DNA of 57,378 nt from Proteobacteria bacterium UBA6156 (GCA_002422365.1 DIUO01000031.1:100187-157564); one strand, 5' to 3'; numbered from the stretch's first letter, positions 2,322-24,934 are shown. The notes: generated from the sequence alone by a model not told the origin. Numbers and translations are program-made.

Positions 2322-4487
2322 ATGAAATCCCCCCTGTTTGCCGCCCTCGCTTTCTGCGCCCTGGCCTTTCCAGCCATGGCGGAAACCGTCAGATCCACCA
2401 TCAGCCCTACGGTAAGCGTTACGCCCACCGCACCCGTCACGGCGGCTATCGTCATATCAGGCACCAACATCCTTTTGCCTGTTGTGATTGATAAGACCGA
2501 TGGGGAAAAGAAGCTGGAAGCCCGTTTGGTCAACCTGCAAAGCGCAGGGGTCGAACTCGGCATGGAAGCCATGATTTTAGAAGGGGAAGCCGCCGCCAGC
2601 GATTCCCCGGAAGGTGGCAAGGATTACGCTATTAGCTGGGGTACGGCCTCCCTCCGCACTAAGGCGGGCGGGAAAGTAAGTACCTATATCACCAAACCTC
2701 TCCAATCTAATGTGTCCGCCAATCCTGCCGTTAAGGGCGGAGACAGCTTTACCGCTGAAGGCGACCCAGCAGAGCTTTTGGCCGCGTGGAAACGCCTGCA
2801 GGAGAAATTGAAAGATGAGGACAAAGAGGCAAAGGAGGATGCCGAAAAGAAAACCGACGCCCCGGCGCCGACAAAGGACTTTGGCGAAAACGCCAAGGAA
2901 CCTGAGCAAAAGGCCCAAACCCAAACACCCCAATTCCAGGTCAAGACCGACCCCGTAACCGTCAGCACCCGCGACGGATGCAGCATGAACGTGGATTTTG
3001 ATCAGATGGTGGCGATTGTTCAGGAACGCACCCTGCAGGACGGCAAAGAGGTTGCCGCCTGCCAAGACACGCTCACCCGTTACCCGTTGGAAAAGAAGTA
3101 CACGTCCTGCCCCAGCTTCGTGGATCTGGACGTCAAGAAAGTCTATAAGCAGTTTACCCTCAGCTATAACGACCCGGTTTCCGGAGGTGCTATCCAAGTC
3201 AAGGATTGCTCCAAGGATGTAGAGCAGGTCACGCCAATTACCTTAGACACTGCCAGTTGCAGCCTTCGTAACGACTTCACGGCGGGTAAATCCATCCAGC
3301 AGGGGCGGATGGTTTACACCGACAGCAACGGCACCATCCAAGAACTGCAATCCTGCACGGATACCGATATTACCTACCCGCACATCAAAACGGACGACAC
3401 CTGCAATGACGTGGTGGACGAGGCCAATAAGCTTGTCACCCACCAGTACCGCTACAAGATCAATAAGGATGGTACGGACGAGTTTGTATCCCAATGTGAG
3501 CCGGACATGGCGACCTCCACCCCACTTCAGGAGGAAATCTGCACCAGCCCCCGCTATACAAACGACTTTGCGGCCAACACCAGCTACCTCAACAAATCCT
3601 ATTTCTACAACAATACCCAAGGCGACCGCGTAGACGTGACCCACTGCCAAGCCAGCACAACGTCCTTCCAGCATAAGAAAGAGGAGGGGACTTGTACCGC
3701 CAGTAATGACGATAGCTCCCGCCAAACCACCATGTACGCCAAGACCTACATTGAAGAAACGGCTGGCGACAAGGTGTACCTCTCCGATTGCCAGCCCATC
3801 ACACCCAAGGTGCCCTATGTGAACATCGGCCAGAAATGGATCAAGACCAGCGGCGCCACCCAAGGCTTCAAGCTGAACGCAGACGAAAGCGGGGCATTAG
3901 CTGATTGGCTCGGAACACTCATCCGCAACACTAATAGTCCCATGCCAATACAGACGCCAACCATGGCTCAAGTACCTTGGCGTACTCAAATTCAAATTGA
4001 CTATTGGACGAACAAGCCGGGGTTAGCCATCAATGGGCAGGAATTCGTTATCAACACCCGAAACTGGTACTACTACACGGCGGATTCCTATGGCTACCAG
4101 CAGCAGAATATCCATGATTCGTCTTTTGGCGGAAGCATGAGCTGCCTCAAGCCCAAATCCCTGCCGTGGATCACGACAGGTGGACTTACGGTGGATTCAG
4201 CCAATTCCACGGAAACGCCTACCACCAACACGACCTATGCCTTGTCAAATTTCAGCATGAACTCCTCGGGCGGTAAGCTCAACTTCAACATGAACATCCC
4301 GACCAACCAGAACGGAACCGGGCAAATCAACTTCCAGTGCGGAGCGCCCACCTGCACCTTAAGCCAGTTTGCAGGGCGGAACGTCTACCGGCGCGGGGAT
4401 AATTCGGAGTTTGTGGATACCAGCGTAAGCACTGGCACCCAGGCTGTTTGCGGCGACGGCTCAAACCTTGACGGGAAAACCATGTAG
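2322..4487 (+). CDS. Secreted 721-aa Cys-rich tandem-repeat protein embedded in the virB operon (function unknown; possible surface or mating-pair protein)
   Basis: Starts 2 nt after the virB10 stop and ends 2 nt before the virB11 start. It has the signal peptide MKSPLFAALAFCALAFPAMA, a Lys/Glu-rich linker, six roughly 48-aa modules each bounded by a Cys pair (aa 220-490), and an Asn/Thr/Gly-rich C-terminal region. Confidence 0.75.
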   Translation: MKSPLFAALAFCALAFPAMAETVRSTISPTVSVTPTAPVTAAIVISGTNILLPVVIDKTDGEKKLEARLVNLQSAGVELGMEAMILEGEAAASDSPEGGKDYAISWGTASLRTKAGGKVSTYITKPLQSNVSANPAVKGGDSFTAEGDPAELLAAWKRLQEKLKDEDKEAKEDAEKKTDAPAPTKDFGENAKEPEQKAQTQTPQFQVKTDPVTVSTRDGCSMNVDFDQMVAIVQERTLQDGKEVAACQDTLTRYPLEKKYTSCPSFVDLDVKKVYKQFTLSYNDPVSGGAIQVKDCSKDVEQVTPITLDTASCSLRNDFTAGKSIQQGRMVYTDSNGTIQELQSCTDTDITYPHIKTDDTCNDVVDEANKLVTHQYRYKINKDGTDEFVSQCEPDMATSTPLQEEICTSPRYTNDFAANTSYLNKSYFYNNTQGDRVDVTHCQASTTSFQHKKEEGTCTASNDDSSRQTTMYAKTYIEETAGDKVYLSDCQPITPKVPYVNIGQKWIKTSGATQGFKLNADESGALADWLGTLIRNTNSPMPIQTPTMAQVPWRTQIQIDYWTNKPGLAINGQEFVINTRNWYYYTADSYGYQQQNIHDSSFGGSMSCLKPKSLPWITTGGLTVDSANSTETPTTNTTYALSNFSMNSSGGKLNFNMNIPTNQNGTGQINFQCGAPTCTLSQFAGRNVYRRGDNSEFVDTSVSTGTQAVCGDGSNLDGKTM

Positions 4488-4489: not shown

Positions 4490-5488
4490 ATGAAAGCCAC
4501 CAAGCCGCCGCTTGATCCGCTTGAGCGCGACCCGCTCATGCGGAACAAGCTCCTGCACCTTAAACCCTACCTCAGCGCAAAGAATCTGGTGGAAATCCGC
4601 ATTAACCAGCCGGGAATGGTCATTCAGACTTTTGCCGATGGAAAGAAGGTCACAAAGCCAGACCCCAAGCTCTCCTTCGATTACTTGGAGAACATGGGGA
4701 AGATTCTGGCGAATCTCACCTACCAGAGGTTCAGCGAGGATAAGCCCATTCTGGCCTGCAAGCTTCCGGGCGGGCACCGGGTTCAGATTGTGGCTTATGA
4801 GAGTGTCGCCAGCAGTTTTGCCATGGTTATCCGTATCAAACGGCAAGTGGTGTATAGCCTGGACGACTTTGGGCTGAGCCGAACCGAACAGAAGGGCGTT
4901 TTGAACGCTATAGCCAATAACAAAACCATTCTGGTGTCCGGCGGCACTGGCACGGGCAAAACTTCCCTCACCAACTGCCTTATCCCGCACATTCCGCTGG
5001 AACAGCGGATTTTGACGATTGAAGGGGTGGCGGAGCTGGTGGTGCCGCATGAGGATTGGTGCGCCTTAACTTATTCCGAGAATAAGTCCGGCATCTCCAG
5101 CAACGGCGCAGCGGAACTCCTGCGGGCTTCCTTGCGCCTCAGCCCCGACCGCATTCTGCTGGGGGAAATCCATACCGAGAATGCCGCTGTGTTCGCGTCC
5201 GCTATCAACACAGGGCATGAAGGCTCAATCGCCACCATCCATGCCAACAACCCCCGCGCCGCCATTGTGGCGCTCATCAGTAAAATGATTGTCAACGGCA
5301 GTATAGACAGTGGCAGCATCGGCATTGTCCAACGCCAGCTTTGCGAAGATATCCACGGCATCATCCAAATTGACAGGGATGCCAAAACCCACCGCCGCAA
5401 GGCGTACTTTGAAACGATGGACCGCCTTGCGGGCCTTGATCTCAAATCTGACGTGGACAGGGAGGTTCAGCAAAATGGGCATCCTTAG
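4490..5488 (+). CDS. virB11: VirB11-family T4SS ATPase
   Basis: Walker A motif VSGGTGTGKTS, RILLGEI, and a His-box-like GHEGSIATIHAN, as in the VirB11/GspE-type hexameric ATPase family. Confidence 0.9.
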   Translation: MKATKPPLDPLERDPLMRNKLLHLKPYLSAKNLVEIRINQPGMVIQTFADGKKVTKPDPKLSFDYLENMGKILANLTYQRFSEDKPILACKLPGGHRVQIVAYESVASSFAMVIRIKRQVVYSLDDFGLSRTEQKGVLNAIANNKTILVSGGTGTGKTSLTNCLIPHIPLEQRILTIEGVAELVVPHEDWCALTYSENKSGISSNGAAELLRASLRLSPDRILLGEIHTENAAVFASAINTGHEGSIATIHANNPRAAIVALISKMIVNGSIDSGSIGIVQRQLCEDIHGIIQIDRDAKTHRRKAYFETMDRLAGLDLKSDVDREVQQNGHP

Positions 5489-7118
5489 CCGCGTCCTCAT
5501 GGCGGCGCCGGCAGGTTACTTCGTAGCCTCGGCCGGCGTCTGGTATCAGCAACCCAATTTGGTGACGCGGCCGGAGGGGCTTTACAAAGCGTGGGCGGCC
5601 CTTGGCCTTCACGCCCCGAACAGCATGTGGCTGGCGGCGTATGCCGCCGCCTTCGCCGTGGCCTTCATTCTTGTGCATCCCAGCCTTGAGCGCAGCAAGT
5701 ACGGTAAGGCCAAGTGGGGTAATTGGCGCACGGCGCGGGAACTGAAGCTGAATGGCAAGCAGGGAATTTTCCTTGGCCTGCTGGACGGCAAACCTCTGCG
5801 CCTGGATGAAAGCCTGTCGGTTTTGATACTCGCCCCTCCCGGCACCGGCAAAACCTCCGCCATCGCTATTCCCACGCTTCTCACCAGCCGCAACAGCTTC
5901 ATCATCAGCGACCTCAAGGGAGAGTTATTCGACCTCACGGCGCCCACACGCAGCACGTTCAGCCGGGTTTGGTACTTCAACCCCACCAGCAAAGGCACCG
6001 CTCGCTTCAATATCTTCGCCGCCAGCATGATGCCGAAGAGCATATTGGACTTTAGCGGCCATGTTTTGAACGCGGCCCACATCATCATTGAAACTCCGCA
6101 AAAGGGCGAAGACTACTTTACCAAGGCGGCGCGGGATGCCTTCGCCTTCTTCGCCCAATGGCTGATATGGAAAAACGGGGCAACCTCCCTCCCTGAAATC
6201 CGCAGCCAAATCCTGTCCAGCGAGGATATTGCCGGTACGGTGGAGGACATGATTGCCGACCTGGAAGGCGAGGGGGCGTTGAGTTCGCATAATGATTGGA
6301 GCGAGTACGGCCCCGGCATTATCCAAAAGCTTATCGAGGACGGGCGCAGCACGCTTGTTGCCGCCAGAAGCGAGGAACAATGGGCGGGTGTAATGGGAAC
6401 ACTCTCCACTTCCCTACAGCCGTTTTCCGATCCCCGGATTGCCGCTGCCACCAGCGGGCCATCCGACCTCAACGCTGAAGACCTGAAGAAGGAATGCACC
6501 AGCATTTACCTTGTCATTCCCGACAAAGACCTGGCCCGCCTCTCTCCCATCGTCACGCTCATTTTTGAAGCTTTAGGCTCCCAGCTTATCTCCGAAATGC
6601 CGAAACCCGCCCAAGTGCCGGTCACGTTCCTGCTGGATGAGTTTATACGCCTCGGCAAGCTGAAACAGGTCAAGGAGCTTCCCGCCATCTCACGCGGCTA
6701 CCGCGTCAATGCGGTATTCATCGCCCAGGACTTCCAGCAGATAGCCGACAAATACGGGCGGGAAGCGGTAAGCATTTTCAACTCGACCTGCGCCTACAAG
6801 GTCATTTTCCGCCAGAACGACCTCAAGACCGCAAAGGATATCAGCGACACCATAGGCAACTTCACCACCACCAAACTCAGCACCAGCCGTTCCGCCAAAG
6901 GCATCCTCAAAACCGAGCGCAGCACCAGCGAAGCCGAAGAAGGCATAGCCCTAGTAAGCGCCCAAGAGATTCTCAACCTCAGCAAGGAGGAAAGCATAGT
7001 CATAGGGCAGGGGGAGCTTATGCACCCGCTGAAAGTGAAAAATGGATTTTGGTTCTCCCAGAAAGATATGATGTCCTTAATAAGAACTAATGCATTTCGG
7101 AGAGAGGTTTTGGGTTGA
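5475..7118 (+). CDS. virD4: VirD4/TraG-family type IV coupling protein
   Basis: ATG 5475 (MGILSRVLMAAPAGYF) overlaps the virB11 stop by 14 nt. The product has two N-terminal TM helices, Walker A LILAPPGTGKTS, and FLLDEF (Walker B region). The ORF-track start at 5310 lies inside virB11 and is rejected. Confidence 0.9.
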   Translation: MGILSRVLMAAPAGYFVASAGVWYQQPNLVTRPEGLYKAWAALGLHAPNSMWLAAYAAAFAVAFILVHPSLERSKYGKAKWGNWRTARELKLNGKQGIFLGLLDGKPLRLDESLSVLILAPPGTGKTSAIAIPTLLTSRNSFIISDLKGELFDLTAPTRSTFSRVWYFNPTSKGTARFNIFAASMMPKSILDFSGHVLNAAHIIIETPQKGEDYFTKAARDAFAFFAQWLIWKNGATSLPEIRSQILSSEDIAGTVEDMIADLEGEGALSSHNDWSEYGPGIIQKLIEDGRSTLVAARSEEQWAGVMGTLSTSLQPFSDPRIAAATSGPSDLNAEDLKKECTSIYLVIPDKDLARLSPIVTLIFEALGSQLISEMPKPAQVPVTFLLDEFIRLGKLKQVKELPAISRGYRVNAVFIAQDFQQIADKYGREAVSIFNSTCAYKVIFRQNDLKTAKDISDTIGNFTTTKLSTSRSAKGILKTERSTSEAEEGIALVSAQEILNLSKEESIVIGQGELMHPLKVKNGFWFSQKDMMSLIRTNAFRREVLG

Positions 7119-7119
7119 T

Positions 7120-7147
7120 TTGAATTGTACGCAGATAGTGTTATATT
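7120..7147 (+). promoter_or_regulatory. Putative sigma70 promoter with extended -10 for the AT-rich cargo operon
   Basis: TTGAAT (7120-7125), a 16-nt spacer, and TGtTATATT (7139-7147), located 20 nt upstream of the first cargo ORF. Confidence 0.35.
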
Positions 7148-7167
7148 ACCGACCTTAAACAAAGAAA

Positions 7168-7398
7168 GTGAGTGATATGACCGAAAAGAAAGATGGCGGC
7201 CGCCAGTTTGTCACAGATCAGGCTTTATCATCCGCATCATTGCAAAATGGTATGACCACAGCGTCGTTACAAAAAAGCCTTACTTCTGCAAATTTGCAAG
7301 CTGCATTAACACCCACACCTGCACCAGCTCAAACAGGTGCAACATCTGCAACTGCCGCCACTGTTGCTCAAGCATCAACCACTACAACTACAAAATAA
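7168..7398 (+). CDS. Small 76-aa protein with three 9-aa (27-nt) repeats and a Thr/Ala-rich tail; unknown function
   Basis: GTG 7168 (alternative ATG 7177). The motif (S/T)A(S/N)LQ recurs at aa 22-26, 31-35 and 40-44. The stop overlaps the next start as TAATG, which argues that it is translated. Confidence 0.45.
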   Translation: MSDMTEKKDGGRQFVTDQALSSASLQNGMTTASLQKSLTSANLQAALTPTPAPAQTGATSATAATVAQASTTTTTK

Positions 7399-7898
7399 TG
7401 TGCTTCATTGACTTTGCAGCACCCGTTGATTGGGAAGCGGTATCTTACATAGCAACGGCTATATCTACAGTGGTTGCTATTATTGGTTTCGGTGCTGTCA
7501 CCTATCAAATCCTGCAAGCCAGAAAGAGTTCTGATTTAGAGGGGATTCAAAGTTTCTTTAGCGGCATAACTCTCCGAGAACATGAGTTTATTACTGCTAC
7601 CATTTGCGATAATAAAACAAAGTCGTTTAATGAACTGGTTAATTATTTTGAAGTATATGCGCTGGCAATAAATAAGAAATTGTTGCCTAAAGCCAGCAGA
7701 GACTTAGTGATTGATAAATTGATCGAGGGCATTGCTCTTATTCATGTTGATGCAACATGGCTCACTAGCTATCAAAGTGCAAAAATTACACCTAATACAT
7801 TTTGTGAACTTGAAAAGTTTACAAATAAATATAAGAAGAAAATTGAAGCTCATAAGCTGCGCTTTCAGCCACCTCTAACCGAAGTAAAGTCTTCCTAA
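7398..7898 (+). CDS. 166-aa single-pass membrane protein, unknown function (layout reminiscent of DUF4760-type proteins, from memory only)
   Basis: N-terminal TM helix AVSYIATAISTVVAIIGFGAVTYQIL followed by a soluble helical region (NYFEVYALAINKKLL). It is translationally coupled to both neighbours and is AT-rich like them. Confidence 0.6.
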   Translation: MCFIDFAAPVDWEAVSYIATAISTVVAIIGFGAVTYQILQARKSSDLEGIQSFFSGITLREHEFITATICDNKTKSFNELVNYFEVYALAINKKLLPKASRDLVIDKLIEGIALIHVDATWLTSYQSAKITPNTFCELEKFTNKYKKKIEAHKLRFQPPLTEVKSS

Positions 7899-7900
7899 AC

Positions 7901-10378
7901 ATGGCTGAAGTATCCGCTACAATTCGTTTACGTCCAACCAGAATTGGTTTTTTGGTTAGACCAAACGATCTAAAATCAATCCGCCGATTTATGCAATATT
8001 CCACCACAATATGGGGTGGCATGTATAATCCTATTATACCTGTATGCAAGATACCGCCAAAACATTGGAGGACAGGGTTTAAGAGAGATTCTCAAAATAT
8101 TAGCCAAGGTTATGTAAAATTTTTTGAACCAGATGTGTTTGTAGAAGCTGAAAAAGGGCTTTTAGAAGAAGCGGGACTTGGCGCACTTCGGCCTAAACAC
8201 GCTATTTACTCAAGCGTTATTACTCTCGATGAATTCTTAAAACCAGAGCGTGCTAAAAATTGGTCTGAGCCTGCATTTAGCGTAAGCATGAATGATGTTT
8301 ATAACCACCTTTATGAAACCGAACAAAGGTTTGAGCAAAAGAAGAAAGCCAAAACCTTTCTCATTAAGCCCGATCCCAACAGTGGCATTACAGAAGCATT
8401 ATTCGGCGTGTTCCCAAATCACCGCCATTGTGACTATTTTAAGAAAAATTATAAAAGCTTGTATGGTGCCGTTGAAAAAGAGCCTGACATTGAAACCTGG
8501 CTTGAAGTATTCAAGAAAAATGCGAGGGTTCCCTTATATATCACGAGCCATGATTTAGATACGAAGAGATCATGGCATCATGATTCTGTTATATTTGTCT
8601 TTAATCCTAAACTAGCTACTGACCTCATTGATCTTTGGAATATGAGACTTGAGCCGAAACCTATTCTTCCAATACCCGTTGAATGGTTTGAAAAGCTTAT
8701 TCCAGAAATTTCAAAATTTATTAAAAGCGAACATAGGCCACTTCAAGGCAATGAACATGGGGTCATGCACCATTCAACTATTGAATTTAGTCGATCTATC
8801 AATGACGAGACTAGTAAATCTCTCATTAGCAAACTACCTAAATTTCCTTCCGGCGCGTTGGCCGTAAAAAACTGGCGCAACCGTATTTGGGTAGAGCATA
8901 AGGATGAATTCATTATGAGAGATAAACGGTTAGAAATAACCGTTGATGAGACACGGGCTAGTTTAGTCCTTAATCCAGAAAGAGATTCGCTATATGCAAA
9001 TTTTGAAGCCCTCTATCCTAAGTTTGCCTCAACATATGGTGGACATGATTACCGTTGGGTAAATGCAGTTCGTATCAGTACCTATGGCTCAGAAGTTGTG
9101 GGAAGTGTTCTTCCCTTTAATACATTCCAACGGATATGGCCGAGATTGGAAACTCTTGGGGGGGAAGCAACGTTAATTGGAACTGAAGGCTGGATATATC
9201 CCCAACGCTTTAAAAAATCGGATCAAAGCATTCGTTTCCTCACTAAGGAAGACGCCATTATTGGGGCACTCAAGCAAATGGGGGTTGAAGCGAAGCTTTC
9301 CGATCCAGGCCATATTGCAAAGCAAATGCTTGAACATCTCGGAAGGCTTTGGAGCGTCAAGGCTCTTGCAGACTTAAAAACTATTGAGCTTTTGAACAAG
9401 ATGGCTGGTGGGTTACGTCGGAAGTCAAATATGACAGACACTATTGAAGAGAGTTTTGAACGCCACTCCGTGCCTGTTAAAGATTGGGTAGATTTGATTG
9501 AGCGGAGAAAAAAGCAGGACTTCGGCCGGTTTGAGCTTGAAGATTTCACATCAAGAAATATCATTCGCTTAGGTTTGGAAACCTCTTGTCCTACCTGCAA
9601 GACAACAAACTGGCATAGCTTGACCGCTACAGATTATAAAATGTCATGTGAGCGCTGCCTGAATGAGTATGATTTTCCCCAAGCAAAGCTCCAACTCAAT
9701 AACAAAAATTGGGCGTACAGGGTGGTGGGACCATTTTCAGTCCCCGATTACGGGCAAGGGGCTTATAGCTCGCTCTTGACACTCAGAGCCTTAAATTGCC
9801 TGCATGGTGCCAGCGATGAAATGACATTTTCAACATCACTTAATGTTGCATTTGATGGGGAAAATGCAGAGGTTGATTTCGTAGCGTTTCATAGGCGAGA
9901 TACCCATGGTGATGAAACCATGCCAAATTTAGTGATTGGAGAAACCAAATCGCTTGGTAAAAGAGACCTCCTCAAACCTAAAGATATCTCCAAGCTTAAA
10001 CTTGTAGGGGCTAAGTTACCCGGTGCCTTTATAGCCGTATCCGTTATGAGAGATCATTTTACGAAAAATGAGAAAAAACTTTTAACAAGTCTGGTTAAGT
10101 GGGGGAGGCGCATAGATCAAAATGGAATGCCGACAAACCCAGTAATCCTGATGACTGGTAAAGAACTGTTTGTTGACCATTTTATATCATCGACATGGAA
10201 AAGCCTTGGTGAACCGCATTCTAAGTTTGAAGATTATAACCACACACGAAACCTTCATGCATTTGCTGATTCCACACAGCAAATTTATTTGGGATTATCC
10301 CCTACATCACAAGTTCATAGGCAAAAATTTGAAGCTCGAAGAGCTAAGGTGTTGGCGAAAAGGGCGGCGGCGGCTTAG
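7901..10378 (+). CDS. 825-aa protein of unknown family: large N-terminal region, CxxC-x16-CxxC zinc ribbon, C-terminal PD-(D/E)xK-like nuclease core
   Basis: Long uninterrupted ORF in AT-rich DNA. The zinc ribbon is C563/C566/C583/C586 (CPTCKTTNWHSLTATDYKMSCERC, nt 9587-9658). The putative nuclease core is D659 ... E681-x-K683 (EVDFVAFHRRDTHGDETMPNLVIGETK, nt 9875-9949). No Walker A motif is present anywhere. Confidence 0.8.
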   Translation: MAEVSATIRLRPTRIGFLVRPNDLKSIRRFMQYSTTIWGGMYNPIIPVCKIPPKHWRTGFKRDSQNISQGYVKFFEPDVFVEAEKGLLEEAGLGALRPKHAIYSSVITLDEFLKPERAKNWSEPAFSVSMNDVYNHLYETEQRFEQKKKAKTFLIKPDPNSGITEALFGVFPNHRHCDYFKKNYKSLYGAVEKEPDIETWLEVFKKNARVPLYITSHDLDTKRSWHHDSVIFVFNPKLATDLIDLWNMRLEPKPILPIPVEWFEKLIPEISKFIKSEHRPLQGNEHGVMHHSTIEFSRSINDETSKSLISKLPKFPSGALAVKNWRNRIWVEHKDEFIMRDKRLEITVDETRASLVLNPERDSLYANFEALYPKFASTYGGHDYRWVNAVRISTYGSEVVGSVLPFNTFQRIWPRLETLGGEATLIGTEGWIYPQRFKKSDQSIRFLTKEDAIIGALKQMGVEAKLSDPGHIAKQMLEHLGRLWSVKALADLKTIELLNKMAGGLRRKSNMTDTIEESFERHSVPVKDWVDLIERRKKQDFGRFELEDFTSRNIIRLGLETSCPTCKTTNWHSLTATDYKMSCERCLNEYDFPQAKLQLNNKNWAYRVVGPFSVPDYGQGAYSSLLTLRALNCLHGASDEMTFSTSLNVAFDGENAEVDFVAFHRRDTHGDETMPNLVIGETKSLGKRDLLKPKDISKLKLVGAKLPGAFIAVSVMRDHFTKNEKKLLTSLVKWGRRIDQNGMPTNPVILMTGKELFVDHFISSTWKSLGEPHSKFEDYNHTRNLHAFADSTQQIYLGLSPTSQVHRQKFEARRAKVLAKRAAAA

Positions 10379-10550
10379 CTAAAAGTCAGGAAATACCGCT
10401 ATCGAAAATTGCTGGAAATTGTTGACTTTTATTGGGACTATTTATCGGTATTAATATTTGAAATTATTGTCAGTATTCCCGAATCCATCACGCGCATAAG
10501 CCATCGTTGAGGGCAACCTCAGCTCGTATCAACAGATGGAGTATAAGCCA

Positions 10551-11312
10551 ATGGCTACCAAAGCAATCAACCATGAAGAGGCAATCACGGAAGCCGTGAA
10601 CAACCTCAGCAAGCGTGAGGTTCTTTTCTCTTACGCCGTTACCTTCGATAAGATCAGTAAGGACATCAGCGACAGCATCACCGCCCTTTCCCATAACAAG
10701 AAAGAGTTGGCTGGGCTGGATGAACGGGTGCTGAAGATTATCGGCAGTTCGTACACCAAGCCTGAAAAGGTGGTGGAGGATTTTAACAAAGCTCGCACCA
10801 GCCAACGTCTTGTGATGGTGGAAACCATGATGAGTGAACCTGAAAAGCTTGGGAACCTGAAAAAGGAACACACCCTGGACATACTCAAAACGCAGAAAAT
10901 CGGCATGGACTATAAGTTCCAGGTTGACCGTCGCGTGGATAACACCATCAAGACCAAAACCGCCAAAGGCGAAATCAAGCGCCATGCCGACCAGGTGTGG
11001 AGTACCGCGCAAAAGTTTGCCCGCGACAACGAATATAACGAGTTTGTCCGTGCCAAGACCCCGGCGGACAAGTTGGACAGCCGCCTTGTGAAGGGCTACC
11101 TGACCGACCAAGAGGCTTTGAAGCAGCTTGTCGCTAATGCGCCGGTTGTCGCCTTGGATGCCTTGAAGGAAAAGAAAATCGACTTCAACGGCAAGCTTCG
11201 GCCCCACCAAACCGTGCGTAGCCTGCAAGATCGCGCCGGTCGTGAGCAGGAGCAATCCAAAACCCAAACCCGCCAGCGCACCCAAAGCCGCCAACGTGGA
11301 TTGAACATCTAA
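10551..11312 (+). CDS. Hypothetical 253-aa Lys/Glu-rich protein with an Arg/Gln-rich C-terminal tail
   Basis: ATG 10551 lies 9 nt after GGAG; the ORF-track start is 10536. Composition is typical of a real soluble protein, whereas the overlapping minus-strand ORF 10488-11366 is Leu/Gly-rich antisense-type. The tail reads RAGREQEQSKTQTRQRTQSRQRGLNI. Confidence 0.6.
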   Translation: MATKAINHEEAITEAVNNLSKREVLFSYAVTFDKISKDISDSITALSHNKKELAGLDERVLKIIGSSYTKPEKVVEDFNKARTSQRLVMVETMMSEPEKLGNLKKEHTLDILKTQKIGMDYKFQVDRRVDNTIKTKTAKGEIKRHADQVWSTAQKFARDNEYNEFVRAKTPADKLDSRLVKGYLTDQEALKQLVANAPVVALDALKEKKIDFNGKLRPHQTVRSLQDRAGREQEQSKTQTRQRTQSRQRGLNI

Positions 11313-11315
11313 CAG

Positions 11316-11338
11316 GAAGCCCCTCAGGGGCTTCTTTT
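11316..11338 (+). terminator. Rho-independent terminator-like hairpin
   Basis: GAAGCCCC-TCA-GGGGCTTC followed by TTTT, immediately after the stop at 11312. Confidence 0.5.
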
Positions 11339-11355
11339 GAAGAAGGAGCAATGTA

Positions 11356-11544
11356 ATGACTGTCAAAGCTGAAATCTACCTCGACTTCCATCACAAGCAC
11401 GGCATCAGTCCTGCTGTTATCCTCTCGGCTATGGAGGATAACGGGGAAGAGGAGGGGGTTATCAAGGATGTGATTGGCCTGTTTGAGTATGAAGGCTATT
11501 CAGAAGCCGATATCCGTACCGCCATGCGGGAACTGGAATATTAA
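11356..11544 (+). CDS. Hypothetical 62-aa acidic protein
   Basis: GAAGGAG lies 7 nt upstream of ATG 11356. The ORF is followed by a clean terminator. I recognise no family. Confidence 0.5.
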   Translation: MTVKAEIYLDFHHKHGISPAVILSAMEDNGEEEGVIKDVIGLFEYEGYSEADIRTAMRELEY

Positions 11545-11558
11545 GGGATAATTCTGGA

Positions 11559-11582
11559 AAACCCGGTGAAGACCGGGTTTTT
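11559..11582 (+). terminator. Rho-independent terminator
   Basis: AAACCCGGT-GAAG-ACCGGGTTT running into TTTTT. Confidence 0.6.
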
Positions 11583-11595
11583 AATTAAAAAGTGC

Positions 11596-11626
11596 TTGAT
11601 TCTCTAGTGGCTAGAGCGTGCATAGA
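11596..11626 (+). promoter_or_regulatory. MerR-type promoter/operator P1 (19-bp spacer with dyad) upstream of the czcI-like/czcCBA operon
   Basis: -35 TTGATT (11596-11601), the 19-nt spacer CTCTAGtggCTAGAGcgtg containing a perfect 6+6 dyad, and -10 CATAGA (11621-11626). It is near-identical to the site at 17962-17992. Confidence 0.7.
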
Positions 11627-11685
11627 AGCCTCATGGCTCTTAATAGAAGGCTCTTAAAACTTGAACGCGCACGCAACAACATGGT

Positions 11686-12030
11686 ATGCATAGGCCAATG
11701 AAGAAGCTTTGGACTCTTTCTGTATTGGTAATGTGCGCGGCGCTGGCTATGGCTCAGTTCGCACACGCCGGTACGGCGGAGAATACCAACTGCGATGTTG
11801 TGAAATCTGAACAGCATATCCAATCTGCTGTTGAAAAGGTTTCTTCTATTCAGAATGAAGGCGACAAAGCCGCGCAGGAAAACTGCTGCGAGAGCTGCCA
11901 CCTTCAACTTATATCCCTTCCTGAAATTGCCGTGGATCGCACGGCACCCGAAGGCGAGCCTATGGCCGCCGTTCCCGCGTCTCCGCGTGGAATCTTCCTG
12001 GATACGCTATCCGAACCTCCTCAGGCGTAA
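11686..12030 (+). CDS. CzcI-like small periplasmic protein
   Basis: Signal peptide MKKLWTLSVLVMCAALAMAQFAHA, a Cys/His cluster ENCCESCH, and a C-terminal LSEPPQA tail. It is the first gene ahead of czcCBA. Confidence 0.6.
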   Translation: MHRPMKKLWTLSVLVMCAALAMAQFAHAGTAENTNCDVVKSEQHIQSAVEKVSSIQNEGDKAAQENCCESCHLQLISLPEIAVDRTAPEGEPMAAVPASPRGIFLDTLSEPPQA

Positions 12031-12119
12031 TGCTCGGCTAGCATGACCGCAACGGCCTATGTAGGCACGTTCCGGCATGTGGATTCCTGCAAGTGCAGGC
12101 ATCCCAATTCATCCAACCA

Positions 12120-12434
12120 ATGAAGTATAGAGATATGAAATATACCCTGATGATGGGCGCCGTAGCCATGGCTATGACTGTGGGTGCCGTTATGAATGTG
12201 ACCGCTGATGAACAGAACCACAGCAAACCCGGCCACCAGCACCGCTCGGAAAACTATGAACAAGGCAAAGTTGAGAAGGAAGTTACGAAAGTAGCTCAAA
12301 TCTCTCCTGCTGAAGGTGCAACTGATGGCAAGAAACTGCCGGGCCGCGACTGCAAGCTTTATGAAGGTGGCACACGCCAGCACACTTTCCCGCAGTACGA
12401 AATCGGCAACCCGAACCGCCCGGAATGCCAATAA
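12120..12434 (+). CDS. Small secreted His-rich protein, unknown (putative periplasmic metal binder)
   Basis: ATG 12120 or 12135. It has the signal peptide MKYTLMMGAVAMAMTVGAVMNVTA, the stretch DEQNHSKPGHQHRSENYEQ, and two C-terminal Cys. Confidence 0.5.
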   Translation: MKYRDMKYTLMMGAVAMAMTVGAVMNVTADEQNHSKPGHQHRSENYEQGKVEKEVTKVAQISPAEGATDGKKLPGRDCKLYEGGTRQHTFPQYEIGNPNRPECQ

Positions 12435-12498
12435 CCACCATGGATACAGGGCCGGAATTCTCCGGCCCTGCTTCCCATGTTTGTGAAAGAAGTTTGTA

Positions 12499-13802
12499 AT
12501 GAGAAATACCTTAACGGCCTGTTCAGCTCTGGCGATGCTCTTCTATATGAGTGCGTCCAATGCCACTGAGCAGAATGTGCCACCCGTCATTAGCCCGACG
12601 ACACATACGAATCATCAACGCTATTTGGGGCTTGCTGAGGCTATTCAGAAGGCGATGGCGAACTCTCCCCGCATCAAGGCGGCGGAAGCTGTTTTAAGTG
12701 CCTCCCGAGGGGCGGAGCGTCAGGCCGGTGCCTGGGCAAACCCCGAAGTTGGCGTGGAGGTCGAGAACCTTGCCGGAAGCGGCCCCTATAAAGGCACCAA
12801 ATCTGCTGAATTCACCTATAACCTTTCCCAAAAGGTGGAGCTTGGTAAGCGCCCCGCCCGTAGGCGTGTCGCCGGTGCCGAGCGGGAAACCGCCAGTATT
12901 GCCGTTTTGGCCGAGAAACTGGATATCGCCCGCGATGTGAAGATTGCTTACGCGGATGTGCTGGCCGCTGAGCGCACCTTACAATTAGCCGAGCAACAGG
13001 AAAAGCTGGCCGAAGATGTGCTGGCAAATGTCGCCAAGCGCGTAGGCGCGGCCCGCGACCCGTTGATTTACAAATCCCAAGCCGAAGTTTCACTGGCAAC
13101 GGCCAGGATGGCCCGCGCCCAAGTTATGCGGGATGTGCAACTGACCCGCAAAAAATTGGCTGCCCTTTGGGGCGGGGAACCGCTGGCGCAAGGGTTGGAC
13201 GAAAGTGTTTTGAACAGCGTTGAACAGCCAGCGCCTTTTGAAACCTATAAAGCCAGACTGGCGGAAAACCCGGACCTGACCCGCTTCATTTCCATGAAGC
13301 TTGCCAAGGCTGCCGCTATCAAGCTTGAGAAAGTCCAGAACATACCCGACCCCAGCGTGAATGTCGGCTTCCGCACGTTCCGCGAATCCAACGAGCAAGC
13401 GATGGTGGTTGGTGTTTCCATGCCGATCCCGGTGCTGGACCAGAACCAGGGCAACATCGCCAAGGCCCGTGCCGAACTAAACCAGGTCGAAAACGAAGGC
13501 CTCACCGCCGGACTGGATGCCGAGCAAGCCTTGCAGGAGGCTTGGCAGGAGTGGGAACTGGCCTACACGGAAGCCAAGCAACTGCATGACAGCATTATTC
13601 CGACTGCCGAGAAAGCCTTTACCTTATCCCGCGAAGGCTATGAACGCGGGCGCTTCTCCTATCTCGAAATCCTCAATGCCCAACGCACGCTTTACGAAGC
13701 AAGGGGCCAATACAACCAATCACTGCAACGTCAGGCCACGGCCAAGGCTCAGGTGCAACGCCTGACCGCCGAACCTGTCACCATTCTTAAGGGGGAAATC
13801 CA

Positions 13803-13806
<4 letters not shown>
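12499..13806 (+). CDS. czcC: Outer-membrane factor (TolC/CzcC family) of an HME-RND efflux system
   Basis: 435 aa with a signal peptide and the two-repeat coiled/beta OMF layout (LAEAIQKAMANSPRIKAAEA, LNAQRTLYEARGQY). It overlaps the next gene by ATGA. Confidence 0.85.
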
Positions 13807-17992
<4,186 letters not shown>

Positions 17993-18015
17993 AAGATCAA
18001 TGAAAGTGCCAAAAT

Positions 18016-18666
18016 ATGTCTAAGTCCTGCTGCGGAGGAGCCTGCGGTTCCAGTGAACTGCCTACGTTTGACGGTATGAACCCGCGTTATAAGCGGATTC
18101 TCTGGACGGTCATCGCCATCAACGGAGCCATGTTCCTCACCGAAATGGTGGCAGGGCACATGGCCGGGTCACAGGCCTTGCAGGCCGACGCCCTGGACTT
18201 TCTGGGCGATACTGTCACATACGGCCTCAGCTTGGCCGTGATTGGCGCGAGCCTGAAAGCACGATCTACAGCCGCCCTCTTCAAAGGCGTATCGCTGGCG
18301 CTTATGGCGATGTGGGTACTAGGTATGACCATCTACCGGACATTGATTCTCGGAGTTCCTAGTGCAGAAGTCATGGGCGTCATTGGCTTGCTTGCCCTAG
18401 CAGCCAACCTCGGCTCAGTCTTGCTTTTACTGCCTTATAAGGATGGCGACGCTAACGTGCGCTCAGTCTGGCTTTGCTCTCGCAACGATGCCATCGGCAA
18501 CGTCGCCGTTATGATCGCTGCCCTTGGCGTCTGGGGAACCGCTACCAAATGGCCTGACCTTGCGGTAGCAGGCTTCATGGCCGTGATGTTCCTGACCTCT
18601 TCAACCCAAATTCTGCGGCAGGCCTGGGCCGAATACCGCAGCGAAAAAGGAAAGACTGCAAAATGA
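18016..18666 (+). CDS. czcD: Cation diffusion facilitator (CzcD-like), short form without the cytoplasmic C-terminal domain
   Basis: N-terminal CCGGACG, then a CDF TM core (AINGAMFLTEMVAGHMAGSQALQADALDFLGD; CSRNDAIGNVAV). The protein ends about 20 aa after the last TM helix (216 aa in total). Confidence 0.8.
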   Translation: MSKSCCGGACGSSELPTFDGMNPRYKRILWTVIAINGAMFLTEMVAGHMAGSQALQADALDFLGDTVTYGLSLAVIGASLKARSTAALFKGVSLALMAMWVLGMTIYRTLILGVPSAEVMGVIGLLALAANLGSVLLLLPYKDGDANVRSVWLCSRNDAIGNVAVMIAALGVWGTATKWPDLAVAGFMAVMFLTSSTQILRQAWAEYRSEKGKTAK

Positions 18667-19019
18667 AAACATGGCTGATAGGCGTCCTTATGGCTGTGGC
18701 AATGCCCGTGCTGGCTGCCGAACCCATTGTTGGGAACTGGAAAACCGCCAGCGGCGAAACCGTGGAAGCCGCCCGCTGCGACAAACAGTTTTGCCTAACC
18801 CTCAAAACCGGCGAGTATGTCGGTAAACAAATCGGCGTACTGGTAGGCGATAGCATCCATTATAAAGGCAACGTCACCGACCCGAAGGAAAACAAAACCT
18901 ATACCGGTTCCGCCGTCGTCACGTCCAACCTGACCAGCCCGGATACGTTAAAGCTGAAAGGTTGCGTGCTTAAACTCCTGTGCAAAACGCAGGAGTGGGA
19001 ACGGATGAGCGCAAAATGA
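18663..19019 (+). CDS. DUF2147-family periplasmic protein
   Basis: Signal peptide, then GNWKTASGETVEAARC ... YKGNVTDPKENKTYTG ... LKLKGCVLKLLCKTQEWER, which matches the DUF2147 pattern as I remember it. ATGA overlaps on both sides. Confidence 0.7.
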   Translation: MKTWLIGVLMAVAMPVLAAEPIVGNWKTASGETVEAARCDKQFCLTLKTGEYVGKQIGVLVGDSIHYKGNVTDPKENKTYTGSAVVTSNLTSPDTLKLKGCVLKLLCKTQEWERMSAK

Positions 19020-19432
19020 AAAAAGCTCTAACTCCAACAACGAATTTTACGATTGGTGAACTTTCCAAGGCCACCGGCACGAAAATTCCGACTATCCGCT
19101 TCTACGAAAGCATCGGCATCCTGCCGGAAGTACCGCGCACCGCCAGCAACCGCCGCCTTTACAACGAAAATGCCATCATGAAGCTCCGCTTTATCCGCCA
19201 TGCGCGTGAGCTGGGCTTTGAACTAGACGCCATCCGCACCCTTCTTGCCATGCAGGAACAACCGGAAGCTTCATGCGAAGAAGCAGATATTTTGGCCCGT
19301 GCCCAACTGGCGGAAGTGGAAATGCGTCTAACCCGCCTTACTGCCATGCGGGAAGAGCTACAGCGTATGCTTTGCGAAAACACCCACAACAAAGTGGCTC
19401 AGTGCCGGATTATTGAAACGCTGGCCAGCTAG
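19016..19432 (+). CDS. MerR-family metal-responsive regulator (CadR/ZntR/PbrR-like, divalent-metal type)
   Basis: ATG 19016 overlaps the upstream stop. The product has the N-terminal wHTH FTIGELSKATGTKIPTIRFYESIGIL, a dimerisation helix and three Cys (SCEE, MLCEN, AQCRI) placed like ZntR/CadR metal ligands. The ORF-track start at 18980 is rejected. Confidence 0.85.
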   Translation: MKKALTPTTNFTIGELSKATGTKIPTIRFYESIGILPEVPRTASNRRLYNENAIMKLRFIRHARELGFELDAIRTLLAMQEQPEASCEEADILARAQLAEVEMRLTRLTAMREELQRMLCENTHNKVAQCRIIETLAS

Positions 19433-19436
19433 AGAA

Positions 19437-19456
19437 AAGGTGCCCGTAGGCACCTT
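19437..19456. terminator. Bidirectional terminator hairpin between convergent genes
   Basis: AAGGTGCC-CGTA-GGCACCTT lies between the merR stop (19432) and the minus-strand stop (19459). Confidence 0.55.
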
Positions 19457-19458
19457 GT

Positions 19459-19851
19459 TCAGAACAACAGCTTTGGCAGAACTATCGCCACGGTAAAGCC
19501 CGTAGCCCACAGAGCGGTAGCAATCCCCACCATCCACCACGAGAATACCCGCAGCCGTTGGCAGGCCAGCGCTAGCCGCTTATCGGCAGGGCAGGGGACA
19601 TATCGCTGCCGCCACACCGAATACCAGCTCACGCCAATCATCAAGGCGGAGATACCAAACACCCACACTTTATGCGCGGAAAGCCACACCAACCAAGGCG
19701 CAGCACTCACCAGGCCGACCAAGGCGGCACCCATGCCGAGGCTCACGAACACCAGCGGCAATACGCAACACACCAAAGTCCCCATGCTGGTAAAAAGTCC
19801 CAGCATGGGCATCAGCGTGTCGCGCCAGTTCAAGGTTTCTTGGCGCGCCAT
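19459..19851 (-). CDS. MerT/MerC-like inner-membrane heavy-metal transporter
   Basis: 130 aa and very hydrophobic. It has a vicinal Cys pair in TM1 (GTLVCCVLPLVFVSLG) and a second Cys pair in a loop (PCPADKRLALAC), as in mercuric-ion uptake proteins. Confidence 0.65.
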   Translation of the reverse strand: MARQETLNWRDTLMPMLGLFTSMGTLVCCVLPLVFVSLGMGAALVGLVSAAPWLVWLSAHKVWVFGISALMIGVSWYSVWRQRYVPCPADKRLALACQRLRVFSWWMVGIATALWATGFTVAIVLPKLLF

Positions 19852-19853
19852 GG

Positions 19854-20240: not shown

Positions 20241-20261
20241 GTTCGTATCTTTCAATTTTAC

Positions 20262-20897: not shown

Positions 20898-20899
20898 GG

Positions 20900-21082
20900 C
20901 TACTTTCCTGCGGTTGTCGGGCTTGTCGTGGAAACGACAGCCTGAGGCCTCACGTTCCCGATGTCATAGGCCGCAAAGCGGTGCCAGATGCCATGCGCCT
21001 TACCACTTGTTGCTGTTTCGGCACTTGCCGCACTGGCAAGGCTCCATGAGGCTAATACAGCCATCATTATAACGATTTTCAT
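20900..21082 (-). CDS. Small secreted protein (60 aa), unknown
   Basis: ATG 21082 gives MKIVIMMAVLASWSLASAASA followed by a short mature peptide containing His and Trp. Confidence 0.4.
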   Translation of the reverse strand: MKIVIMMAVLASWSLASAASAETATSGKAHGIWHRFAAYDIGNVRPQAVVSTTSPTTAGK

Positions 21083-24893: not shown

Positions 24894-24934
24894 CAACTAT
24901 CCAACCTAACAAATCAAAACCAAAGGAAACTATA

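Follow-up and report, generated by a model that had tools for sequence, protein, structure and literature searches.

The window analysed here is the whole 57,378-nucleotide stretch of DNA from Proteobacteria bacterium UBA6156. It contains three genes, orfA, orfB and orfC, lodged between virD4 (5475..7118), which encodes the T4SS coupling protein, and the backbone genes p258 and p62 (10536..11544). All features of the window described in this paper lie on the + strand. VirD4 is recognised by the Pfam families T4SS-DNA_transf (E=1.9e-66), TraG-D_C and TrwB_AAD_bind. Its start at 5475 (547 aa) follows the public gene calls on identical contigs, while the mechanical ORF opens at 5310, and we verified that the protein ends in VKNGFWFSQKDMMSLIRTNAFRREVLG before the stop codon. 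Family searches gave no match for p258 and p62, which are conserved in sibling integrative conjugative elements (ICEs) at 86-94% amino acid identity regardless of what lies between the two flanks.

The base composition changes abruptly between these flanks. An earlier note on this DNA had claimed this from three 60-nt samples, which we could reproduce (G+C of 23/60 at 8041-8100 and 26/60 at 9001-9060, against 32/60 at 6001-6060). The GC content of the AT-rich block is 0.407 and that of the rest of the window is 0.578±0.026 (mean and sd of the 468 3.47-kb windows lying wholly outside the block; minimum 0.533), a shift far beyond chance. Sliding GC and GC3 both set the block apart, with GC3 at 0.72 in virD4, 0.29 in orfA, 0.33 in orfB, 0.36 in orfC and 0.68 in p258. 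GC begins to drop at about 6990-7050, which is before the virD4 stop as had been proposed. The proposed end of the block near 10,480 is correct in that GC is low there, but the sequence between 10384 and about 10470 belongs to the conserved AT-rich backbone and not to the cargo. The block is foreign, horizontally acquired cargo covering about 7055-10383 of the window.

Comparison of four ICE variants, which have common flanks and differing content between them, identifies the slot as a variable cargo hotspot of a T4SS ICE, and so bears out the position right after the T4SS genes that had been assigned to the block. The hotspot is bounded by the fast-diverging last ~16-21 codons of virD4 and, upstream of p258, by an intergenic element that is AT-rich and conserved. 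On the left, the suspicion that the junction lies inside the coupling protein gene was well founded: blastn homology to three sibling ICEs stops at 7053 (L001), 7054 (L100) and 7069 (L102), which places the recombination junction in a divergent C-terminal tail (7054..7118) with a GC content of 0.385. Ungapped identity to L001 falls from ~19-21/30 to 7-9/30 beyond ~7070. The four VirD4 tails part ways past 'NGFWF' and their lengths stay similar, at 19-23 residues. The right-side junctions with the siblings fall at 7902, 10384 and 10449. The AT-rich element that forms the right boundary (10384..10535) is common to all four variants and adjoins whichever gene closes the slot, in the empty-slot variant too. 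It contains GTCAG/TTGTCAG repeats, TTGGAAATTGTTG repeats and a hairpin just 5' of the p258 start, and an inverted repeat (I8) is found at 10380-10431.

Related ICEs that lack the insert, which the earlier note proposed to look for, do exist: L100 and L101 carry an empty slot. The slot of L001 and L002 holds a HEPN_LA2681 gene and an orfC homolog. In L102 it is filled by a Lamassu/ABC-3C-like system (CTD12+MC8+DUF2326), a DUF3800 gene and UmuDC-like genes. The DUF2326 protein of L102 matches PADLOC PDC-M68B with E=8e-53, with weaker matches to LmuB, and its DUF3800 protein matches PDC-S51 with E=3e-106. Defence-type genes of the sort that the earlier note expected at this position are present in the same slot of sibling ICEs. 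Discrete hotspots are known to concentrate defence genes in ICEs (PMC12629846), and the LA2681 HEPN proteins are a predicted conflict RNase family (PMC3710099).

The three genes of the cargo run in the same direction. OrfA (7177..7398) has 73 residues from the ATG at 7177, or 76 from an alternative GTG at 7168, and is followed by orfB (7398..7898; 166 aa) and orfC (7901..10378; 825 aa). The joints between them are as first described: the orfA stop overlaps the orfB start in TAATG at 7396-7400, and TAA-AC-ATG at 7896-7903 leaves a 2-nt gap between orfB and orfC. We found no terminator between the three genes. The overlap, the short gap and the absence of a terminator make co-transcription in this ICE probable. 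A candidate sigma-70-like promoter lies upstream of orfA within the cargo (7120..7147). Its hexamers and spacing exist as reported, with TTGAAT at 7120-7125, a 16-nt spacer and an extended -10 element, TGTTATATT, at 7139-7147, and the promoter scan gives 9/12 hexamer matches plus the TG. But the region has 7 promoter-like matches compared to 8.3±2.9 in shuffled sequence, and because such matches are no commoner than in shuffles the promoter is plausible by position only.

This compact arrangement, which is repeated on at least six metagenome contigs, though as copies of the same element, argues for the view that all three genes belong to a single integrated defence or addiction system driven by a promoter of its own. 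When we looked for the trio elsewhere, neither orfA nor orfB was found at any of 81 loci with an orfC homolog, and the gene tables of six other independent loci with orfB relatives list no orfC-sized gene. The closest sibling ICE retains orfC and has an oppositely oriented HEPN gene in place of orfA-orfB, with homology resuming at the orfC start codon. As the trio was not found in any other genome, the single-system view fails; we consider it very improbable and largely refuted by the missing co-occurrence. No neighbour family exceeds 4 of 79 orfC loci, and co-directional neighbours within 60 nt of orfC are seen in 11/49 cases upstream and 6/52 downstream. The cargo is composed of two unrelated modules placed head to tail, the orfA-orfB pair and a solo orfC, and the probable co-transcription of all three is an accident of juxtaposition.

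In orfA a (S/T)-(S/A)-x-L-Q-type repeat occurs three times and the tail is rich in Pro, Ala and Thr; its overlap with orfB predicts that the two are translationally coupled. A small ORF whose product has the motif GL(S/T)Sx(L)LQxAL and ends in low-complexity sequence is found directly 5' of orfB relatives in all 7 independent loci sampled, so that orfA can be described as a conserved partner of orfB. OrfB is predicted to be a single-pass membrane protein, with an N-terminal transmembrane helix at residues 17-35 (Kyte-Doolittle maximum 1.87 over YIATAISTVVAIIGFGAVT) and a helical domain. Exhaustive phmmer searching gave 122 representative relatives at E<=1e-3, 47 of them at E<=1e-10, and nearly all have 150-170 aa. 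The earlier note could assign none of the three products to a named family. This holds for orfC, whose family is large and named by no library, but not entirely for orfB, which is distantly DUF4760-like. Most of the Pfam DUF4760 model is covered by the alignment with the helical domain of orfB (E=0.005) and the two are of comparable length (~150-170 aa), but the score of 17.4 bits is under the gathering threshold of 25. Four of 50 orfB relatives reach DUF4760 at E<=1e-3, and in a limited literature search we did not meet an upstream partner with the GL(S/T)SxLLQxAL repeat alongside DUF4760. Elsewhere the orfA-orfB pair adjoins toxin-antitoxin and defence genes.

The stand-alone orfC protein has a multidomain structure in its AF2 model (pLDDT 84.7, pTM 0.82), and appears to combine a sensor with a DNA nuclease. 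We place its start at 7901, as supported by the family-wide conservation of residues 1-30; public gene callers begin at M31. The N-terminal region (7901..9238), presumed to be the sensor or regulatory part, is modelled as two domains, one alpha/beta and two-lobed (aa 1-335), the other all-beta (aa 345-446). It has the conserved motifs WGGxYNPIIPV, FEPDV and TDLIDLWN(L/M)RLEP, of which WGGxxNP and DLxxxWNLR are still present in a 24%-identical homolog. It is followed by a helical region (9245..9565; aa 449-555) of three helices and a beta-hairpin, which we tentatively describe as a winged helix on the basis of the models. DSSP assigns H468-480, H483-489, H492-502, E505-509 and E515-519 in the full-length model, and the hairpin is of low confidence in a second model. 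LLNKMAGGLRRK is conserved in this region and the hairpin bears a conserved GGLRRK; no fold match was obtained for the region.

The C-terminal third of orfC is predicted to consist of a zinc ribbon and a PD-(D/E)xK nuclease, as judged from conserved residues and the modelled fold. The four cysteines of the ribbon (9572..9676; C563, C566, C583 and C586), which is modelled as four short strands, are invariant in 44 sequences and also kept in the 24%-identical homolog, which is from a plasmid. The nuclease domain (9698..10180) has an alpha-beta-beta-beta-alpha-beta core in the model, and its candidate catalytic residues E657, D659, E681 and K683 (E-x-D…E-x-K) are invariant across 52 homologs down to 32% identity. 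Neither Pfam nor PDB gave a sequence match for the nuclease, even with a 52-sequence sub-profile. In structure searches of the PDB with Foldseek the full-length model matches Cdn1 (9u49, E=1.6e-5) and VC1899 (1xmx, E=3.3e-5), followed in order by Can2, Card1, Cap4 and NotI. The invariant residues and these matches uphold the claim of a nuclease-type module in the large protein.

That Cdn1 bound to cA4, VC1899, Can2 and Card1 are the top folds, with Cap4 weaker, raises the question whether orfC works like Can2, Card1 and Cdn1, as an effector switched on by a signal. A type III CRISPR or CBASS system encoded elsewhere would then supply a cyclic oligonucleotide, which would act on a CARF- or SAVED-like N-terminal sensor and trigger the nuclease. 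The Foldseek matches disappear once the nuclease domain is deleted: with residues 601-825 removed no CARF or SAVED structure is among the top 50 and none is significant, so the likeness is confined to the nuclease domain. The model of residues 1-600 has nothing significant in the PDB (best E 0.014, probability 0.2). Pfam gives no CARF or SAVED match, and cyclase or CRISPR genes do not recur near orfC homologs. We think it very unlikely that orfC is such an effector.

The orfC family comprises at least 486 homologs, every one labelled 'hypothetical' and without Pfam domains, and searches of Pfam, NCBIfam, PADLOC and PHROGs gave no match for orfC itself. Members of the family occur in scattered lineages, among them Alphaproteobacteria, Nitrospirota, Acidobacteriota, Planctomycetota, Myxococcota and Spirochaetota. 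A pattern scan of one genome each of 185,579 species found 86 matching stretches at 75 distinct loci, which is a lower bound. In 48 of 51 loci the GC content of orfC is below that of its flanks (median -6.4 points), and about 10 of the 75 loci show decay, through an IS insertion, a frameshift or a truncation. Homologs were found in 2 of 72,556 plasmid records and in none of the phages searched. Because orfC is nearly absent from plasmids and absent from phages, its tie to mobile elements is looser than that of many defence genes.

Defence and toxin-antitoxin genes (PbeA, PsyrT, AriAB, AbiEi/Eii, HipA, a type I S subunit, HEPN, AbiJ and PrlF-YhaV) and mobile-element genes (integrases, resolvases and a relaxase) often adjoin orfC, but many neighbours are ordinary metabolic genes, for example FTHFS, AtuA, SDRs and EF-Tu. 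The position of many homologs amid metabolic genes on large chromosomal contigs would fit an ordinary cellular nuclease of DNA repair or recombination, or else a regulator that binds DNA and whose nuclease fold has degenerated; the AT-richness would then be incidental. The architecture is also kept end to end at 24% identity, a sign that a defined activity is under strong purifying selection. Against a cellular role stand the very patchy spread, the low GC, the frequent decay, the lack of a conserved gene context and the presence or absence of orfC among near-identical ICE backbones, and we regard it as unlikely.

Solo occurrence without a conserved partner, many horizontal transfers and many decayed copies could also be expected of a nuclease that is selfish or addictive and mainly secures its own retention, as a homing-type or a solitary restriction endonuclease would. 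Addiction would call for a cognate methyltransferase or antitoxin, and orfC has neither, no DNA methyltransferase family being among the orfC neighbours listed; unlike homing endonucleases orfC is not inserted in conserved host genes. With 825 aa and large conserved domains besides the nuclease, it looks regulated and not minimal, and we find such a selfish role quite unlikely. Exclusion and anti-restriction functions are among those that ICEs can carry as cargo beside their transfer genes. As orfC comes straight after virD4 in two ICE variants, it might be the ICE's own T4SS-tied nuclease for DNA processing, entry exclusion, maintenance or anti-defence. But a T4SS context is seen at only 2 of ~56 independent orfC loci, and the gene is missing from two siblings that have the same ICE backbone, so that we give such a service function only a small chance.

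The reading we favour, at a little better than an even chance, is that of a hotspot cargo of two independent modules in which orfC is a self-contained sensor-nuclease defence gene. Probably both modules are defence genes. A library of known systems does not recognise them: the PADLOC search (v2) proposed in the earlier note gave no match at E<=1 for orfA, orfB or orfC. We suggest that orfC would act alone, as sensor and nuclease in one protein, in the manner of restriction or abortive infection. DNA, the likely substrate, may be bound by the zinc ribbon together with the helical region and would then be cleaved at the E-x-D…E-x-K site. The N-terminal domains, as the putative sensor, might gate cleavage or direct it onto invading DNA, be it a phage, a rival plasmid or another ICE. 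Such gating would explain how a nuclease is tolerated without a methyltransferase or antitoxin partner.

Among known systems, the nuclease domains of the CARF effectors Can2, Card1, Cdn1 and VC1899 (DUF1887-type) are the best structural matches of orfC, with 7bdv, 6wxw and 6xl1 following 9u49 and 1xmx. Both have a PD-(D/E)xK core, with the pattern D…E-x-K in orfC, and a nuclease joined to a larger part that is regulatory in the effectors and presumably so in orfC. Unlike these effectors, orfC has no detectable CARF domain, sequence similarity or association with CRISPR or cyclase genes, and possesses an extra zinc ribbon and, at its N-terminus, unrelated domains of ~555 residues. Type IV and solitary restriction endonucleases with an Mrr-like logic resemble orfC in being lone nuclease genes without a methyltransferase partner, in their modular structure with putative DNA-binding elements ahead of the PD-(D/E)xK domain, and in their horizontal mobility and patchy distribution. 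In contrast to them, orfC matches neither Mrr_cat nor any other restriction-enzyme Pfam family, has no known modified-base reader domain that we could detect, and yielded no solved structural relative for its N-terminal domains with Foldseek against the PDB. Defence hotspots of mobile elements are a documented concept (PMC12629846, PMC9122126). The slot described here differs from them in that its left edge lies inside the virD4 3' tail, its host ICE family is known from metagenomes alone, and the window's own cargo matches no known system. It shares with the hotspots of SXT-ICEs, P2/P4 and Pseudomonas islands the conserved flanks around mutually exclusive cargo, and the likeness extends to an empty-site variant and to recognised defence-type cargo, found here in the siblings.

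The AT-rich block between virD4 and the backbone gene p258, at about 7020-10490, is best read as composite cargo in a defence hotspot of an integrative conjugative element (ICE). Its G+C content of 0.407 is 6.6 standard deviations below the mean of 468 other 3.47-kb windows (mean 0.578, sd 0.026, minimum 0.533). In a sliding profile the value falls from about 0.56 to 0.35-0.45 between roughly 6900 and 10600. Third-position G+C is 0.72 in virD4 and 0.68 in p258, against 0.29, 0.33 and 0.36 in the three block ORFs orfA, orfB and orfC. The block is a real feature, and every number in the earlier note was reproduced, including sampled G+C counts of 23/60, 26/60 and 32/60 at their original positions; the VirD4 tail also reads as it was quoted there. 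The element that bears the block is a T4SS ICE. The window opens with VirB9 (CagX), VirB10 (TrbI), a 721-aa protein without assignment, VirB11 and VirD4, and to the right of the block follow p258, a second backbone gene p62, about 18 kb of metal-resistance genes (CzcCBA-like efflux, multicopper oxidase, P-type ATPase), a ParB_N protein and a tRNA-Arg at 32.7 kb. The identical element is present in at least six metagenome assemblies. Plasmids gave no match to a megablast of window 4500-12500 or to a tblastn of p258, and a p258 pattern scan of metagenomes found nothing.

By anchoring on p258 and on an orfC homolog we found three sibling ICEs with the same backbone, whose flanking DNA is 78-84% identical to that of the window. 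The slot between virD4 and p258 holds something different in each of the four variants. It is empty, a 184-nt gap, in L100/L101. In L001/L002 it carries an oppositely oriented HEPN_LA2681 gene (506 aa, E=8e-51) followed by an 82%-identical orfC. In L102 it carries a CTD12, MC8 and DUF2326 set of ABC-3C/Lamassu-like type (PADLOC PDC-M68B, E=8e-53), a DUF3800 protein (PDC-S51, E=3e-106) and UmuD/UmuC-like genes, and in the window orfA-orfB and then orfC. The suggestion that the block is cargo is thus borne out by shared flanks around differing content, and the site shows what marks a defence hotspot of a mobile element: conserved flanks, mutually exclusive cargo, an empty site and defence-type cargo elsewhere. 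The UmuD (Peptidase_S24) and UmuC (IMS) error-prone polymerase pair of L102 (5831-7513 of that locus) lies in the virD4-proximal slot together with the candidate defence genes.

The sibling comparison also places the edges. Homology between the window and its siblings breaks at 7053, 7054 and 7069, so that the left junction does lie inside virD4 as had been proposed, at about 50-65 nt before the stop rather than about 100 nt. As far as 'NGFWF' the VirD4 proteins of the four variants are collinear and conserved; over their last 19-23 residues they diverge, at similar lengths. On the right, the point where homology restarts depends on the sibling: in L001 it is 7902, base two of the orfC start codon, in L102 it is 10384, just past the stop codon of orfC, and in L100 it is 10449. 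This puts the true right edge at about 10384 and not near 10,480, and the low-GC remainder belongs to the backbone. An AT-rich intergenic element (10384-10535) with GTCAG/TTGTCAG and TTGGAAATTGTTG repeats stands directly after the last gene of the slot, whichever gene that is, in 4/4 variants. No transposon-like or att-like repeats were found around the cargo, only short two-copy repeats which are probably due to chance. An imperfect direct repeat (23/29 nt), with one copy in virD4 (6825-6853) and the other in p258 (10650-10678), brackets the low-GC region; both copies encode KDISD(T/S)I and sit either side of the hotspot, and this repeat is probably a chance one as well.

Several other features of the backbone deserve mention. 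The metal-resistance genes fill about 18 kb (11600-29500) between p62 and the ParB_N gene (29503-31347) and include CzcC/OEP (12499-13806), CzcB (13803-14807), an RND pump (14831-17965), a multicopper oxidase (22529-24184) and a P-type ATPase (26531-28777). Only a few hundred bases separate p62 from ParB_N in L001, and the same interval holds a different metal set in L102 and unrelated genes in L100; it looks like a second cargo hotspot of the same ICE. A tRNA-Arg(ACG) gene on the minus strand (32671-32747) lies shortly past the ParB gene and ahead of apparently chromosomal genes (ComEC at 37145-39055, asparagine synthase, oxidoreductases), and plausibly marks the attachment site and the end of the element. 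The 721-aa protein between VirB10 and VirB11 (2322-4487, plus strand) has no Pfam hit. All sibling ICEs have a conserved counterpart of 698-717 aa at this position, which makes the protein an uncharacterised component of the backbone, associated with the T4SS. A 292-aa antisense ORF (10488-11366, minus strand) overlaps p258 fully and was rejected as a gene, being a shadow ORF of the GC-rich p258.

The three block ORFs are orfA (7168/7177-7398), orfB (7398-7898) and orfC (7901-10378), and the described junctions, TAATG at 7396-7400 and TAA-AC-ATG at 7896-7903, were confirmed. Public gene calls start orfC at M31, giving a protein of 795 aa and a false 93-nt gap after orfB. Judged by conservation, orfC really begins with the ATG at 7901, because residues 1-30 (RLRPTRIGFLVRP…) are among the best conserved in the orfC family; the annotated start is thus placed 30 codons too late. 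The promoter that had been proposed upstream of orfA is present as written (TTGAAT, 16 nt, TGTTATATT at 7120-7147), but such matches are no commoner than in shuffled sequence, with 7 found in the region against 8.3±2.9 expected. We found no convincing terminator between virD4, orfA, orfB and orfC, and Rfam reported nothing above gathering score on either strand of 6800-11700. An RsmY-like match at 11464-11581 (plus strand), which covers the end of p62 and runs into the spacer behind it, scores 27.7 bits where the gathering score is 57 (E=7e-4); it is sub-threshold and probably spurious.

The close spacing of these genes had been taken as a sign of one three-gene operon. This reading is contradicted by the co-occurrence data: tblastn with orfA and orfB gave no hit in any of 81 loci with orfC homologs. 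No neighbour family is found in more than 4/79 orfC loci after all-against-all clustering, and co-directional neighbours lie within 60 nt of orfC homologs in only 11/49 cases upstream and 6/52 downstream. Taken together, these observations mean that orfC is a solo gene. For annotation, the lesson is that tight spacing and shared orientation within a hotspot do not make a system.

orfA and orfB are a conserved two-gene module, which entered the slot independently of orfC. A word-indexed homolog search had left orfB as an orphan, a result overturned by exhaustive phmmer, which returned 122 representatives (47 at E<=1e-10), nearly all of 150-170 aa. We sampled loci of orfB relatives one by one and looked up six. 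In 7/7 independent loci, window included, an ORF of 42-86 aa lies directly upstream of the orfB relative, usually abutting or overlapping its start, and encodes 1-3 copies of GL(S/T)Sx(L)LQxAL together with a Pro/Ala/Ser/Thr/Gly-rich tail. Beside the pair, no orfC-sized gene appears in the gene tables of the other six loci. Among the neighbours of such pairs are Gp49/HigB-type toxin-antitoxin genes with a caspase-helicase on a ParA-bearing contig, a PIN/VapC gene, RelE-MqsA, and SMODS plus SLATT. In this last case (L094, 134-2529) the pair stands directly 3' of a SMODS nucleotidyltransferase and SLATT_4, a known conflict-system architecture, which suggests that defence islands are where the module resides. 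orfB is predicted to have a single transmembrane helix near its N-terminus and shows a distant likeness to Pfam DUF4760, at 17.4 bits below the gathering threshold of 25; among 50 of its relatives only 4 reach E<=1e-3 for this family. orfA, orfB and orfC have no hit at E<=1 among the PADLOC-DB v2.0.0 system HMMs and none in PHROGs.

The 825-aa orfC belongs to a family of at least 486 proteins (clusters at 90% identity, E<=1e-3 among the scored candidates), which are 50-57% identical over their full length, are all labelled 'hypothetical' and carry no Pfam domain. orfC itself has no match in Pfam, NCBIfam, PADLOC or PHROGs, and two distant homologs have none in PADLOC at E<=0.001. A pattern scan of one genome per species in 185,579 species gave, as lower bounds, 86 confirmed stretches in 75 distinct loci. 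The hosts include Alphaproteobacteria, Nitrospirota, Nitrospinota, Acidobacteriota, Planctomycetota, Myxococcota, Desulfobacterota, Spirochaetota and Latescibacterota. The gene was found in 2/72,556 plasmid records and 0/50,697 phage records. Anaeromyxobacter sp. PSR-1 has two full-length paralogs (L056 and L067) on separate contigs, both 34-35% identical to the window protein.

The AF2 model of orfC (pLDDT 84.7, pTM 0.82) shows a two-lobed alpha/beta domain (residues 1-335), an all-beta domain (345-446), a helical region that is tentatively a winged helix (449-555), a four-Cys zinc ribbon (C563, C566, C583, C586), a PD-(D/E)xK core (600-760) and a helical tail at the C-terminal end. A plasmid homolog of only 24% identity aligns over its full length (hhalign probability 99.5%, 697 columns), and therefore the architecture is inherited as a unit. 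A Bradyrhizobium plasmid hit to residues 461-797 only was considered as an alternative architecture and rejected, as hhalign finds full-length homology. The core has the alpha-beta-beta-beta-alpha-beta order in the model (H615-632, E640-651, E654-665, E676-683, H693-705, E710-715), and Foldseek matches it to PD-(D/E)xK nucleases at probability 1.00. The D…(D/E)-x-K residues on strands 2 and 3 (E657, D659, E681, K683) are invariant in 44 close and 52 diverse homologs, down to 32% identity, and are also kept in the 24%-identical plasmid homolog. Sequence profiles recognise none of this: 0/52 C-terminal fragments hit a curated nuclease family at E<=1 in a permissive Pfam scan, and profile searches of the PDB gave no nuclease family either. 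The C-terminal domain is most likely a PD-(D/E)xK nuclease, as predicted from the model, and would cleave nucleic acid in a metal-dependent way.

The 140 genes within two positions of an orfC homolog include no family more than twice. Mobile-element genes are among them (integrases, resolvases, capsids, a TrwC relaxase), as are conflict genes (PbeA twice, PsyrT, AriAB, AbiEi/Eii, HipA, a type I S subunit, DUF2971, DUF4411, HEPN, TumE, PrlF-YhaV, AbiJ) and ordinary metabolic genes. G+C content is lower in the homolog than in its flanks in 48/51 loci (median difference -6.4 points). Decay has affected about 10 of the 75 loci, through frameshifts, truncations, rearranged fragments or IS-sized insertions, some of the frameshifts in long-read MAGs being possible sequencing errors. 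In the complete chromosome of Nitrobacter sp. JJSN (L061, 4057-9065) two insertions, each of about 1.3 kb and presumably an IS element, break the homolog into three pieces, a clear inactivation in a finished genome. A nuclease that serves the ICE itself becomes less probable, as some sibling ICEs lack orfC and the contexts of the family are mostly non-ICE; a housekeeping enzyme and a selfish nuclease are further rivals. Guilt by association and the predicted fold make a self-contained sensor-nuclease the most likely reading of orfC. In such a protein the zinc ribbon and helical region would bind DNA, the PD-(D/E)xK site would cleave the bound DNA, and the N-terminal domains would gate or target the nuclease. 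Gating of this kind would explain how a partnerless nuclease is tolerated.

A bolder joint reading, which we hold tentatively and find somewhat doubtful as a whole, is that orfC is the founding member of a new class of immune sensor-nucleases that consist of a single protein, that orfA-orfB is a separate new membrane-acting conflict module, and that both sit in an undescribed hotspot with its left edge inside virD4. The N-terminal domain pair of about 450 residues would sense a novel invader cue and license the zinc-ribbon/PD-(D/E)xK nuclease, and the repeat-bearing small protein orfA would control the DUF4760-like membrane protein orfB. In the libraries and literature searched we found no prior description of the orfC family with its unmatched N-terminal domains, of the orfA-orfB pairing rule or of a hotspot edge within the virD4 tail. 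If the composite-cargo reading is right, a library-unnamed family in many phyla would gain a testable one-gene nuclease defence function, with a sensor domain lacking a solved structural relative. A second uncharacterised two-gene module, small repeat protein then membrane protein, would become minable and testable. The virD4 3' tail would offer a ready route to further defence-gene candidates in this family of ICEs, and the C-terminus of the coupling protein would be shown to tolerate recombination. The candidates are solid and testable and their function is putative; the current literature on defence discovery offers many comparable ones.

Among known systems, the CARF-type signal effectors were considered because a Foldseek search of the full orfC model against the PDB ranks Cdn1-cA4, VC1899, Can2 and Card1 at the top, followed by Cap4, NotI and McrC. 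The N-terminal fold search and the gene contexts contradict this identity. When residues 1-600 are folded alone, nothing significant is found (best E 0.014, probability 0.2), no CARF/SAVED protein is among the top 50 matches and Pfam gives no hit, so it is only in the nuclease domain that orfC resembles Can2/Card1-type proteins, and for its N-terminal 600 residues we found no solved structural relative. Unlike the CARF/SAVED-nuclease effectors Can2, Card1, Cdn1 and Cap4, orfC has no detectable ligand-sensing domain of their kind, and it shows no association with type III CRISPR or a CD-NTase generator: there is no recurring neighbour in 79 loci, and no cyclase or Cas family among those shown for the 140 neighbours. 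No known modified-DNA reader domain was detected in orfC by sequence or fold, although its N-terminal domains, which have no solved structural relative, may yet act as a reader. The families shown for the 140 flanking genes include no DNA methyltransferase, and the one restriction-modification component is the type I specificity (S) subunit. As a solitary nuclease without a cognate methyltransferase, orfC resembles the type IV restriction enzymes. Precedents exist both for ICE hotspots and for sensor-plus-PD-(D/E)xK effectors (PMC12629846, PMC9122126, PMC12825302, PMC3710099).
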